Source: Anolis carolinensis
Taxonomy: Eukaryota
Direction of reading: 5' to 3'
Assembly: GCF_035594765.1 (NCBI RefSeq)
Contig: NC_085845.1
Span: 140,074,897-140,138,896, forward strand
Length of the DNA: 64,000 nt
Numbering within the stretch: position 1 is the first letter of the stretch; each line of letters opens with the position of its first letter. Under the pieces are notes generated by a model. The model ran no database searches. It was not told the DNA's origin and saw only the letters and a list, made by a program, of their open reading frames with translations. A program made the translations under genes and the position numbers. Positions 11,104 through 37,256 of this stretch are shown here, one piece after another.

Positions 11104-12749
11104 TGTCGCGCCCGTCAATTGGGGTTCTAAATTTGCAACCCCCTTTCTTCAGAAGCTTTGCACTCTGGTTAAGGAGAATACCCAACACAAACTGTCTCTT
11201 TAACAAAGAATAGGTTTATATAAAGGTATTTACAAATACAGCAGAGTCCTTGGATTTTTCAGCTGCTTCCACACAATGAATAGTAAACAATAAAGTCCTT
11301 ATCTTCAGCAAGATGCCACAGTCTTGTTCTTCAGACGTTGTAGCAACAATACACCTCCGGCAACTCCAACTTGGACAAAACAGCTCCAGCAACTCCACCT
11401 CAGCATTCAATCTCAGGTGCCAAACTCCAACCTCGAGCTCCAAACTCTCTCCAACCTTCAAACCTCAAGCACCAACCTTGAGTAACATAATGTACTTAGT
11501 CTCTACTTGTAGTACTCCATCTCTAACAGGTGGCTTGATTGTTGCTGGCCATACAATAAATAGTAAACAATAAAGTCCTTATCTTCAGCAAGATGCCACA
11601 GTCTTGTTCTTCAGACGTTGTAGCAACAATACACCTCCGGCAACTCCAACTTGGACAAAACAGCTCCAGCAACTCCACCTCAGCATTCAATCTCAGGTGC
11701 CAAACTCCAACCTCGAGCTCCAAACTCTCTCCAACCTTCAAACCTCAAGCACCAACCTTGAGTAACATAATGTACTTAGTCTCTACTTGTAGTACTCCAT
11801 CTCTAACAGGTGGCTTGATTGTTGCTGGCCATACAATAAATAGTAAACAATAAAGTCCTTATCTTCAGCAAGATGCCACAGTCTTGTTCTTCAGACGTTG
11901 TAGCAACAATACACCTCCGGCAACTCCAACTTGGACAAAACAGCTCCAGCAACTCCACCTCAGCATTCAATCTCAGGTGCCAAACTCCAACCTCGAGCTC
12001 CAAACTCTCTCCAACCTTCAAACCTCAAGCACCAACCTTGAGTAACATAATGTACTTAGTCTCTACTTGTAGTACTCCATCTCTAACAGGTGGCTTGATT
12101 GTTGCTGGCCATACAATAAATAGTAAACAATAAAGTCCTTATCTTCAGCAACATGCCACAGTCTTGTTCTTCAGACGTTGTAGCAACAATACACCTCCGG
12201 CAACTCCAACTTGGACAAAACAGCTCCAGCAACTCCACCTCAGCATTCAATCTCAGGTGCCAAACTCCAACCTCGAGCTCCAAACTCTCTCCAACCTTCA
12301 AACCTCAAGCACCAACCTTGAGTAACATAATGTACTTAGTCTCTACTTGTAGTACTCCATCTCTAACAGGTGGCTTGATTGTTGCTGGCCATACAATAAA
12401 TAGTAAACAATAAAGTCCTTATCTTCAGCAAGATGCCACAGTCTTGTTCTTCAGACGTCGTAGCAACAATACACCTCCGGCAACTCCAACTTGGACAAAA
12501 CAGCTCTAGCAACTCCACCTCAGCATTCAATCTCAGGTGCCAAACTCCAACCTCGAGCTCCAAACTCTCTCCAACCTTCAAACCTCAAGCACCAACCTCC
12601 TACCTTGAGTAACATAATGTACTTAGTCTCTACTAGTAGTACTCCATCTCTAACAGGTGGCTTGATTGTTGCTGGCCATACAGTGATTAGTAATGATCCT
12701 TACAATCATTTACCCATTTTCAGTTAAGAAATGATATAAACCTCTGACA
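11104..12749 (-). mobile_element. Solo LTR (TG...CA) containing a 5x 280-bp tandem array
   Basis: Termini TGTC...GACA; perfect 5-bp TSD tcatg (11099-11103, 12750-12754). Orientation inferred from strand composition only. Confidence 0.85.
11279..12682. repeat. 280-bp tandem repeat, 5 near-identical copies
   Basis: Units start at 11279, 11559, 11839, 12119 and 12399. Identical ORF calls recur every 280 bp. Only a few variants, mostly in copy 5. Confidence 0.97.
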
Positions 12750-26777: not shown

Positions 26778-27958
26778 TGTCATAGACAGAACGCCACCAA
26801 ATAGAGTACAACACAGTTTATTGAGGTTACAGAACTAAAAAATGCCCGTAGGAAACAAAGGACTAGGCAAACACTTGTCTTCAGTGTGAAAAGTAACAGA
26901 AACAGCTTCGTTTGAATTAAAACGGTTCGAAAGAATAAACCGGATTTAACAGGAGTTTAATCCGGATTAAATCAAAAGTGCTTACTTCAGCCTGGCAATT
27001 TAAACAAGCAAAAGTTGGTAAACAGAGGTCAAAATGAACACAAAAAACTGGCAGCAGATTCCTCTCTGCTACTCAAAAGCTACAGATGAGTAACTCAGGC
27101 TGTTTACTCTTCCGTGCAACGAGCGAAATCCAGGTCCAGGCACATCAATCAGGGTAACGGCGGTCAGCAGGGTCCCAATCCGGTCCAAGGTCGAAAGCCA
27201 AGCGCAGACGTCTAAAGTTCCACAAGTTCCACCGATAGCCACAGAAGGGATAGTCCAAGGTCGTAGTCAGTCAGTCAGTCCAGCGTCAATCCAGAGTAGG
27301 TAATTAATGTCCGTCAAAAAGACGACGGAGGTCCAAGCTATCAAGATTAAACACAAGTTGCACAGAAAAACCCCACACAGTTCCTCCCGCCGTCTATGCC
27401 CAGTGTCCTTGGTAACTTACGTATCCAGCAACGAATCACACCCGTCTTCAGGAAGTTCCCCAACAAGAGCCCAAGCGTTCGTCCAGATTACCTTGCCCAA
27501 CGCAATTAGCCATTGATCCTAAACCCCATTTTATCCCAGTTCATAACTCCTCATCGCTGTCAGCTGCTATCCTAATTCCAGGTGCCTCATCATCATCATC
27601 CTCATCAGAACTAAAACACCTTTGACTACGCCCCACAGCATCCCCAGCTGTGGATCCCGCTCCATCCCTCCAGCCCGTCCATGGGTCTGATCCTGCAACC
27701 CGCCAATCGTCTCCCATACTATCATTGCCGGTGACACCCAAATCCTCCCTTACACGAGTCCACTCCATGTCATCCTCCTCTGAGCTAACCATCTCTTCCT
27801 CCATTCGCTCGGTAAAACCCTCAAATGAGTCTTCATCTGTTGGTTCTGCAAATAAGTCCCGGAGCCGTTTCCTTTCGCGCTCCTCAAAAGAGTCTGACTC
27901 TCGAGGAGTCTTACGACCCCGTCTCCTAGTATCGGAGCCAGAAGGCTCAACCATAACA
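26778..27958 (-). mobile_element. Solo LTR (1181 bp), same family as 36021-37256
   Basis: Minus strand TGTTATGG...CTATGACA; TSD tcacc / ccacc; AATAAA near its 3' end; colinear with the second copy. Confidence 0.93.
27541..27954 (-). CDS. LTR U3-encoded acidic protein (137 aa) with an FxGF motif; probable retroelement Pol/integrase tail or accessory ORF
   Basis: ATG at LTR position 5; intact and homologous to 36025-36453 with mainly synonymous differences. The upstream MEFQVYTINLG of the ORF track is flanking host DNA. Confidence 0.65.
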   Translation of the reverse strand: MVEPSGSDTRRRGRKTPRESDSFEERERKRLRDLFAEPTDEDSFEGFTERMEEEMVSSEEDDMEWTRVREDLGVTGNDSMGDDWRVAGSDPWTGWRDGAGSTAGDAVGRSQRCFSSDEDDDDEAPGIRIAADSDEEL

Positions 27959-31915: not shown

Positions 31916-33072
31916 ACCCGGGATCTTTACGTCCCTTTCTGAAGGTTCTCAAGGCCAAGGTGTTCCCCATTGCTTTGTATGGAGCTGAAATATGGGGGGA
32001 TCAAGATCTGGCATTGGTAGAAAGATTCCAACTTCGCCACTTGAAAATTGGCTTAGGTGTGGAGAGATCATCCCTGTCAGCTGCTGTGAGAGCAGAGATG
32101 GGGGTACCCCCAATTTCCACAGTAATCCTGAAGAGACAGATCAATTGGTGGTACAAAATAAGACAAATGTAACCACATAGACTCCCAGCCATATGCCTAT
32201 TAGAACAAGAAAACCACAAAGAGTGGTCATCATGGCTAAGCAGACTTGGTCACACGGTCAGCAAGATAGGTTTTGCCCCACACGAGCTAATAAATTTCGG
32301 GGCTAAAGTGTGCTCAATTGTATACCAAAGAGCCCTTGACATTGCTGCACAAAATGATCTTATGATCATAGCGCAAGCTAGAGCCACTCCATACCTGGCC
32401 AAATTTAAATGCAATGTGGGCATGGAAACTTACCTCTTCTTGACTCTTCCATTATATATTAGAAAACTTTTTACTCGGGCTAGATTCGATCAGCTCGACA
32501 TTAAGTCCAAGCTAGGAAGACATCAGAATATCCCCTATATGCAGAGAACCTGTGGGTGTCGTGAGGTAGATGCAGAAGTGGAGGACTCAGAACATTTCTT
32601 CTTAAAATGCCCCTACTGCACCAGGATTCGATCTCTCTATTTAGACCCTCTGCTGGAGAATCATACTCACTTAGAGAATGAGGAGAAATTGCATATCTTT
32701 CTACAGGGTTCAGATAAAAACTCAATTTTAAAACTGGCCCCTTTTACACAAAAAGCGCTGGCCATTCGTGAGAAGATGAAAGCTGAGAGCTGATACATTA
32801 TTGCCACTAACAAAATCCAAACTTAAAATTTACTATGGACAAGACACTTGTTTTACTTACCCCTGTCCTTGTTCAAACCTTTCCTTAGGAAATTACTAAT
32901 TTTAACCTTTTTACTCTGTATTTGTCTAGGAGCGGGTTATTAGGCTGCAGGTCGGGATGTTTTGTATCTTTACATGGTTTTATTGTGCGTAAGTGTGTAC
33001 GTATTGTATGTTTTACATGTTTTGATATGGTCAAAAGTGACTAATTAATAAAGAATTGTTGTTGTTGCTTCT
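31916..33072 (+). mobile_element. RTEX-like LINE 3' fragment
   Basis: VFPIALYGAEIWG and C-terminal RTCGC...EVEDSEHFFLKCPY; (TTG)n tail after AATAAA; 13-bp TSD tcaatttggattt (31903-15, 33073-85); internal stop at 32170-72. Confidence 0.85.
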
Positions 33073-36020: not shown

Positions 36021-37256
36021 TGTTATGGTTGAGCCTTCGGGCTCCGATAATAGAAGAAGGGGGTATAAGACTCCTCGAGAGTCAGACTCTTTCGAGGAGC
36101 GTGAACGAAAACGGCTCCGGGATTTGTTTACAGACCCGACAGATGAGGACTCATTTGAGGGTTTTTCTGAGGGTTTGGAGGAAGAGATGGCCAGCTCGGA
36201 GGAGGATGACATGGAATGGACTCGTGTGAGGGAGGATTTGGGTGTTGGGGAAACAGGCAATGAAAGCATGGGAGGTGAGTGGCGGGTTGCAGGATCAGAC
36301 CCATGGACTGGCTGGAGGGATGGAGCGGGATCCACAGCTGGGGATGCTGTGGGGCGTAGTCAAAGGTGCTTTAGCTCTGATGAGGATGATGAGTTTGGGG
36401 CGCCTGGAATTGGGATGGCAGCTGACAGCGATGATGAGCTTGAACTGGGATAAATTGGGGTTTGGGATCAATGTCTAATTGCGTTGGGCAAGGTAATCTG
36501 GACGGACGCTTGGGCTTTTGTTGGGGAACTTCCTGAAGACGGGTGTGATTCGTTGCTGGATACGTAAGTTTACCAAGGACACTGGGCATCGACGGCGGGA
36601 GGAACTGTGCGGGGTTTTTCTCTGTGCAACTTGTGTTTAATCTCAATAGCTTGGACCTCCGTCATCTTTTTGACGGGCAATACCTACTCACACTGGATTG
36701 ACGCTGGACTGACTGACTTCGATTCTGGATTATCCCTTCTGCTGCTTATCGGTGAGACCTTTGGATTCCTAGACGACTACGTTTGGCTATTGACCTCTGG
36801 ACCGGATTGGGACCCTGCTGACTGCCGTTTCCCTGACTGCTGAGCCTGGACCTGTATATCGTTGGCTGTTGAACCTTAAATTGAATCCTGACTACGACCA
36901 CGTTTTCCTTCGCTGCAGCGAGGAATAAACAAGCCTGGTTTAGTCTCCAGCTGTTTCTGAGTAGCAGAGAGGAATCTGCTACCAGTCTGTTGTTTACATT
37001 CTGACTCCTGTTGATCCTCCTTTGTTTGCATTGTTTGCCAGGCTGAAGTAAGCACTTTTGATTTAATCCGGATTATACTTCTGTTTAACCCGGTTTTTCT
37101 CTTTGAGTTGTTTAAGCTCAATCTGAGTTGTTTTTGTGTTACCTATCACACTGAAGTCAAGTGTTTGCCCTGTTCTTTGTCTCCTATGGGCATTTTTAGT
37201 TCTGTAATCTCAATAAACTGAGTTTTGCTTTACTCACTGGCGTTCTGTCTATGACA
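36021..37256 (+). mobile_element. Solo LTR (1236 bp)
   Basis: TGTTATGG...CTATGACA; perfect 5-bp TSD tgact (36016-20, 37257-61); AATAAA at 37212-17. Confidence 0.95.
36025..36453 (+). CDS. LTR U3-encoded acidic protein (142 aa) with a basic NLS-like patch and an LxxLF-acidic-FxGF motif
   Basis: Intact ORF from LTR position 5; homologous to 27541-27954; the only internal indel is an in-frame 6-nt event. Confidence 0.65.
   Translation: MVEPSGSDNRRRGYKTPRESDSFEERERKRLRDLFTDPTDEDSFEGFSEGLEEEMASSEEDDMEWTRVREDLGVGETGNESMGGEWRVAGSDPWTGWRDGAGSTAGDAVGRSQRCFSSDEDDEFGAPGIGMAADSDDELELG

Follow-up and report, generated by a model that had tools for sequence, protein, structure and literature searches.

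Origin of the open reading frame in two solo LTRs

The window, as the whole stretch of 64,000 nucleotides of Anolis carolinensis DNA analysed here is called, contains two solo LTRs, each of which opens with a reading frame of about 140 codons, and the question raised by this locus is whether that frame has been translated and, if so, as what kind of protein. In the initial annotation, which was made from the letters of the window, the two LTRs were regarded as independent insertions, and the frame was regarded as a product of the U3 region comparable with nef of HIV or sag of MMTV.

LTR A (minus strand) and LTR B (plus strand) represent different subfamilies of the same Ty3/Gypsy element (Table 1). 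They lie in inverted orientation, share 82% identity overall and have different 5-bp flanks; the target-site duplication of A (GGTGG/GGTGA) contains one mismatch, while that of B (TGACT/TGACT) is perfect, and the two are thus independent insertions as annotated. LTR A is 98-99% identical to either LTR of the full-length copies L031-L033. Since near-identical genomic copies are numerous for each LTR (2544 and 1362 first-look candidates, of which 40 were scored each), the divergence between A and B arose in the active parent elements.

The frame is open from LTR nucleotide 2 in both copies, upstream of the ATG at nucleotide 5 from which the annotated ORF of both starts. It ends, again as annotated, at or just before a TATA-like GATAAA: the stop codon of A is located at nucleotide 418, six bases before GATAAA (nucleotide 424), and that of B lies inside GATAAA. 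The complement of the primer-binding site is found at LTR nucleotide 456, about 30 nt 3' of GATAAA, and is paired in the fold. The transcript is likely to start near this 11-nt self-priming complement, and the ORF would therefore lie wholly within U3.

Table 1. Features of the two solo LTRs, with positions counted from the first letter of the window
Feature	Position	Strand	Details
Solo LTR A, Ty3/Gypsy	26778-27958	-	1181 nt, TG...CA, flanks GGTGG/GGTGA
Solo LTR B, other subfamily of the same Ty3/Gypsy element	36021-37256	+	1236 nt
U3 ORF, copy A (almost certainly the Pol/integrase C-terminal tail)	27541..27957	-	138 codons, 30% D+E
U3 ORF, copy B	36022..36453	+	143 codons
TIM/IBM-like motif, copy A	27814..27867	-	codons 30-47 (helix end, 8-residue acidic linker, FxGF)
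TIM/IBM-like motif, copy B	36112..36165	+	
Most constrained block	27742..27786	-	codons 57-71, acidic run and W-x-x-V start
TATA-like GATAAA, copy A	27530..27535	-	directly 3' of ORF stop; putative promoter role
11-nt complement of the primer-binding site (full-length copies)	27493..27503	-	self-priming
AATAAA polyadenylation signal	26817..26822	-	close to LTR end

An 83-90-nt deletion in R (LTR nucleotides ~538-625, window 27334-27421) recurs across several subfamilies, both A-like and B-like, and may reflect a hot spot or recombination between subfamilies. The window also contains a tandem repeat at 11269-12688, with a 280-nt unit in about five copies of 99% identity, and an inverted 615-nt pair of another repeat family (32308-32922 / 41220-41834, 86% identity), of which a third, partial copy lies near position 48953.

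Purifying selection on the U3 reading frame

For codons 1-47, 11 synonymous differences (codons 5, 10, 12, 13, 23, 26, 28, 33, 34, 38 and 41) and 4 nonsynonymous differences (codons 9, 14, 36 and 37) had been listed by hand between A and B, and both lists are exact. The accompanying statement that the only internal indel is 6 nt long is correct in that this indel is present, but an extra 1-nt difference at the last codon shifts the stop by three codons. Over 136 codons, A and B differ by 25 synonymous and 19 nonsynonymous changes (dN/dS 0.17; binomial p 4e-7), third codon positions taking 30 of the 46 differences, and none of 5000 simulations in which mutation types and CpG context were preserved reached 25 synonymous changes (mean 13.1). 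The ratio is 2.3 for the other two sense frames. Along the ORF, dN/dS between A and B is 0.09-0.14 over codons 1-90 and 0.46 beyond.

The same comparison was extended to genomic copies, using pairwise counts between real copies in place of branch-wise estimates. Twenty-five loci were kept after two tandem duplicates and one deleted, one truncated and one broken locus had been removed, and dN/dS between ten clusters, from 264 non-independent pairs, is 0.23 for the U3 frame, which is not near 1, and 0.08 for upstream pol. Young copies come closer to neutrality in their private changes, with 18 synonymous and 42 nonsynonymous changes in 58 copies (ratios 0.58 and 0.79). The indels found within LTR nucleotides 1-408 across 24 loci are -3, -162 and +6, none of which is frameshifting, as against about 67 frameshifting bins among 75 downstream of nucleotide 408 in the same number of loci, a count that is inflated by alignment jitter. 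By both dN/dS and the indel spectrum, the annotated proposal of a translated U3, kept under purifying selection while the parent elements were active, is borne out.

An explanation at the DNA level, such as constraint on a U3 enhancer sequence or CpG decay acting without translation, might draw on the CpG sites involved in 15 of the 46 A/B differences and on synonymous divergence that is low close to the LTR start and at codons 102-131. It conflicts with the codon periodicity and with an indel spectrum that is purely in-frame within the ORF, and the CpG-matched simulation and the ratio of the other sense frames also speak against it, making it extremely improbable. Local effects of this kind may nevertheless occur, as the codons at the FxGF side of the motif described below (F44, E45 and F47) are free of synonymous changes across the 10 subfamily representatives and may be subject to DNA-level constraint.

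Selection on the protein is uneven, the block at codons 57-71, outside that motif, being the most constrained (pN/pS 0.06) and the last third only weakly so (0.38, with some pairs above 1). At window positions 27600-27690 (codons ~88-117), A and B are almost identical, with one third of synonymous sites differing in the flanks, which may result from recombination or from an overlapping promoter constraint.

Continuity of the U3 frame with pol

Full-length elements have paired LTRs 5.2 kb apart and a total length of 6.4 kb, the 4.0-kb interior being filled by gag-pol, which encodes Gag, protease, RT, RNase H and integrase in that order, followed by SH3_Tf2-1, with no env. This gene order, the TG...CA ends, the polypurine tract and the short target-site duplication place the element in Ty3/Gypsy. 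Domain search detected no PF00385 chromodomain in L031, L033 and P0004, a domain carried by 103 of 117 relatives outside the family. Tandem arrays with shared LTRs at 5.2-kb spacing are present at L067-L069 and at G000:C4:80501367-80521436.

A pattern for the junction of polypurine tract and LTR, in which the ATG was required, matched 253 sites and none in the reversed control. The first 30 junctions were analysed, all of them on C1 and three in one tandem array, and the GPY/F-SH3 motif and the LTR ORF share one open frame in 28; of the other two, one has an altered motif with the frame still open and one has a stop six codons upstream. The part of the frame within the LTR, hereafter the tail, reaches at least 138 codons in 27 of the 30 junctions, the rest comprising one in-frame deletion and two early stops. 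By hand count, 36 of 150 hits contain one open frame of 1209-1216 codons, and in the database proteins P0002, P0004 and P0005 integrase and tail form a single chain. The seven named matches to the tail are all proteins of Anolis carolinensis. In two full-length elements an early stop occurs just past the helix-acidic-FxGF motif.

A lizard Ty3/Gypsy element thus almost certainly ends its Gag-Pol/integrase frame with the U3 ORF, which makes up the final ~140 codons. U3 is copied to both ends of the element at each insertion, and the presence of the frame in solo LTRs is a by-product of this; there it is placed 5' of the putative promoter, which would not drive its expression.

The nef- or sag-like accessory gene of the initial annotation, that is, a separate small protein starting from the ATG at LTR nucleotide 5 and translated from its own spliced or read-in mRNA, is not supported. 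The ATG is present in both window copies and was part of the pattern that found the 253 junctions, and a 137-aa product (P0246) appears among gene-caller predictions, but the ORF continues the pol frame across the polypurine tract, is situated 5' of the likely transcript start, is preceded by a purine tract and not by a pyrimidine tract, and has a counterpart in the same frame of a sister family without an ATG at that place. A separate protein is therefore very unlikely. In four contig runs, none of them recorded as RNA, that were compared with the internal region plus the 3' LTR, no joint was seen by which the U3 frame would reach a short mRNA, a result that carries no weight either way. A contig of run X1 lacks 1112 nt of the LTR (L032:722-1835); the skipped segment has GT..AG ends when read on the strand opposite to the element.

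In a quick tree, the family groups with squamate elements and adjoins the Podarcis motif families with a support of only 85-88; this tree contains 63 of 120 rows, with long branches and no outgroup, and the nearest rows are squamate, some of them with a chromodomain. A second anole Gypsy family, which keeps the chromodomain, also has a pol frame reading 93-98 codons into the LTR in 14 of 15 loci. Its U3 extension has a dN/dS of 0.28-0.40 in five pairs and contains no FxGF, so that pol read-through into U3 does not need this motif. This second family (L098-L112) and one from Podarcis (P0131, P0134 and P0135) have in common a chromodomain, pol running into the LTR and a terminal RRS-x-R-I/L motif, which resembles the nucleosome-binding core of HMGN.

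A putative TND-binding motif in the tail

The motif definition used here was drawn from reviews, where the TND-interacting motif is described as a helix, an acidic S/T-rich linker of 8-16 residues and FxGF, the last being required in every known partner of LEDGF and HRP2 (PMC9987994), with the consensus D/ExExFxGF (PMC8022399); a fly case is described in another report (10.1101/624023). The tail contains a region closely resembling this arrangement. A helix is predicted at codons 23-34 (low-confidence single-sequence model, block pLDDT 59-73), and L31, L/I34 and F35 are conserved as candidate helix anchors. They are followed by a linker of 8 residues, of which 4 are acidic, with one CK2-type site, and by FxGF, which is invariant in 19 of 19 rows. 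P0006 and P0246 contain the full D/ExExFxGF consensus, while the window copies agree at 5 of 6 positions and have D where the consensus has E.

The anole genome itself encodes similar motifs. Three helix-acidic-FxGF exons are located upstream of two zf-4CXXC_R1 genes, one at CDCA7 and two at another gene, which, having two, would be CDCA7L/JPO2. The window motif aligns without gaps with the motif of the first CDCA7L/JPO2-like exon, 8 of 18 residues being identical (11 of 18 for P0246). The score of the motif-to-host alignment is 48, as against a maximum of 35 in 5000 shuffles and a best value of 29 among 303 other Gypsy-related proteins, the p values of the shuffle test being not blind because the motif had been picked by eye beforehand. 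Recent capture of the motif from a host gene is not indicated, as third-position identity with L138 is 8 of 18.

Few of the broader relatives have the FxGF motif (4 of 131 tails, where shuffling gives 1.6). The tail has no match in Pfam, and searches of PDB with the whole ORF, a 30-mer and an 8-row motif profile yielded no meaningful match, solved IBD-peptide fusions being absent from the matches; among the best 150 hits from 1.84 billion representatives, no tail homologue outside the family was found. Complex prediction for residues 400-490 of anole LEDGF with a 41-residue motif, alignments being unused, gave 0.33 in three runs, against a mark of 0.34 and controls of 0.00-0.01, and speaks neither for nor against binding. 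The host genome encodes PSIP1 with the IBD. It also contains an intronless PSIP1 (LEDGF) copy with a stop (L094:1500-2050), 95% identical to the anole protein, which is likely a processed pseudogene. Judged from sequence, the tail probably carries a TND-binding motif.

Recurrence of the motif in other squamate families

An older sister family came to light in the motif scan, as a decayed LTR at L142:7851-8351 on the minus strand (loci L145-L172). It comprises 1201 candidates, its copies are about 10% diverged, and its protein is 27-46% identical to the tail. The U3 of this family encodes three tandem helix-acidic-FxGF motifs, where F, G and F are fixed, x is E, L and V, and the codons differ. 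Both of the downstream two motifs are present in 15 of 25 loci, one in 9 and none in 1, and the upstream motif is seen in 16 of 17 examined loci. Of 3 junctions, 2 show integrase reading into the LTR; a chromodomain is absent, and there is no ATG at LTR nucleotide 5. In the window family, codons 57-71 correspond by homology to the beginning of the third sister-family repeat and may represent a motif without FxGF.

Seven Podarcis (wall-lizard) proteins, falling into two groups, contain one or two motifs behind a chromodomain or chromodomain-like block, and P0263 and P0299 likewise contain one or two after a chromodomain-like block. The motifs of all these proteins apparently sit before the polypurine tract, and the tails of the Podarcis motif families are otherwise unlike the window tail. 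This recurrence across families is a stronger argument than the host-motif alignment.

It also bears on the proposal that the Pol tail was selected for nuclear import and generic acidic spacing, with FxGF as an incidental feature. The basic clusters at codons 10-15 and 26-32 are conserved, and Ty1 integrase is reported to have a C-terminal nuclear targeting signal (PMC2490736). Three tandem motifs with F, G and F fixed and x varying, the reappearance of the motif in Podarcis families with unlike tails and the gapless likeness to host motifs all argue against this proposal, which is regarded as distinctly unlikely.

Proposed mechanism and insertion pattern

The pol frame reads through the polypurine tract into U3, and the tail encoded there has been selected as protein. 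The tail would stay on integrase, its basic clusters would help nuclear entry, and the helix-acidic-FxGF motif would bind the TND (IBD) of host LEDGF or HRP2, with a binding that may be tuned by CK2. The PWWP of LEDGF/HRP2 on H3K36me2/3 would in turn place the integration complex on transcribed chromatin, and this tethering would replace targeting by the chromodomain. This whole chain, from the U3-encoded tail through LEDGF/HRP2 to an integration complex held on transcribed chromatin, is given slightly better than even chances.

The share of copies on microchromosomes (C9-C17, 13% of placed sequence) served as a weak stand-in for intronic versus intergenic placement. Internal hits on microchromosomes number 8 of 147 (three unplaced hits dropped), against 2 of 150 in the chromodomain family (p 0.06), and are below the 13% share in both families (p 0.004 for the 8 of 147 of the window family). 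For LTR hits, the numbers are 8 of 78 (two unplaced hits dropped) against 0 of 80 in the chromodomain family (p 0.003), a comparison confounded by paired LTRs, tie order and the mixing of solo with full-length states. The direction of these differences fits targeting, and their weight is small.

A Pol tail with a genuine TND-binding motif could be put to another use, such as retaining the complex on chromatin, recruiting repair or elongation factors to the new copy, or binding another TND protein (IWS1, TFIIS or ELOA). Such a use would be served by the same motif evidence, and is compatible with the acidic tail and the weak insertion-site evidence, but the tail occupies the place of the chromodomain of the 103 of 117 relatives, a place assigned to a putative targeting domain in one study (PMC3059260), and FxGF is described in a review as specific to LEDGF and HRP2 binding (PMC9987994). 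This alternative is thus considered unlikely, and tethering to LEDGF/HRP2 remains the preferred reading.

Comparison with known systems and significance

In plant CRM group A (centromeric chromoviruses; PMC3059260), the polyprotein frame runs into the 3' LTR and fills U3, as it does in the lizard element, which differs in its lizard host, its helix-acidic-FxGF motif and its copies on all large chromosomes. Vertebrate and fungal chromoviruses of the Sushi/Tf1 type (PMC3601003) share with it SH3_Tf2-1 after the integrase core, self-priming complementarity and AATAAA near the LTR end, hairpin priming being described there for some chromoviruses. A further link to this type is the PF00385 chromodomain carried by the nearest relatives of the lizard element, which itself is without a chromodomain and has ~140 Pol codons inside U3.

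The TIMs of JPO2 (CDCA7L), MLL1, IWS1 and JIL-1 (PMC9987994, PMC8022399, 10.1101/624023) contain a helix with hydrophobic anchors, as predicted for the lizard motif, and share with it an 8-residue acidic linker with a CK2-type site, and FxGF. Tandem motifs also occur in both settings, with two in JPO2 and three in IWS1 as well as in the sister family; unlike the host TIMs, the lizard motif is encoded by a retrotransposon LTR, and the window copies have D for the consensus E. The coding sequences of HIV nef and MMTV sag overlap U3 as the lizard frame does, but they are separate genes with their own mRNA, whereas the lizard frame is fused to pol. Lentiviruses engage LEDGF/HRP2 by a folded integrase surface, whereas the lizard element would rely on a linear motif of host type within its disordered tail. 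The proposed common end result is an integrase tethered to H3K36me2/3 readers, as described for lentiviral integrase (PMC9987994).

No published TIM/IBM in a retrotransposon integrase, and no such read-through in lizards, was found in a search that did not cover subscription papers and Repbase. The present case is a known architecture, with pol running into U3, in a new form and with a specific host-mimicry hypothesis. A broader proposal, whose chances are about even, is that this lizard Ty3/Gypsy lineage swapped its chromodomain for one to three host LEDGF/HRP2-binding motifs and moved them to U3, thereby taking the lentiviral route by mimicry, and that squamate U3 regions generally serve as chromatin-motif cassettes.

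The continuity with pol explains the thousands of solo LTRs in this genome whose open, selected-looking frame is annotated by gene callers as a protein. Tethering by LEDGF/HRP2 is known for lentiviral integrases, and a retrotransposon that mimics the host motif would, if true, have reached this host factor independently. The families would then form a natural series, from chromodomain through chromodomain plus motif and motif only to three motifs, for a targeting switch between chromatin marks.
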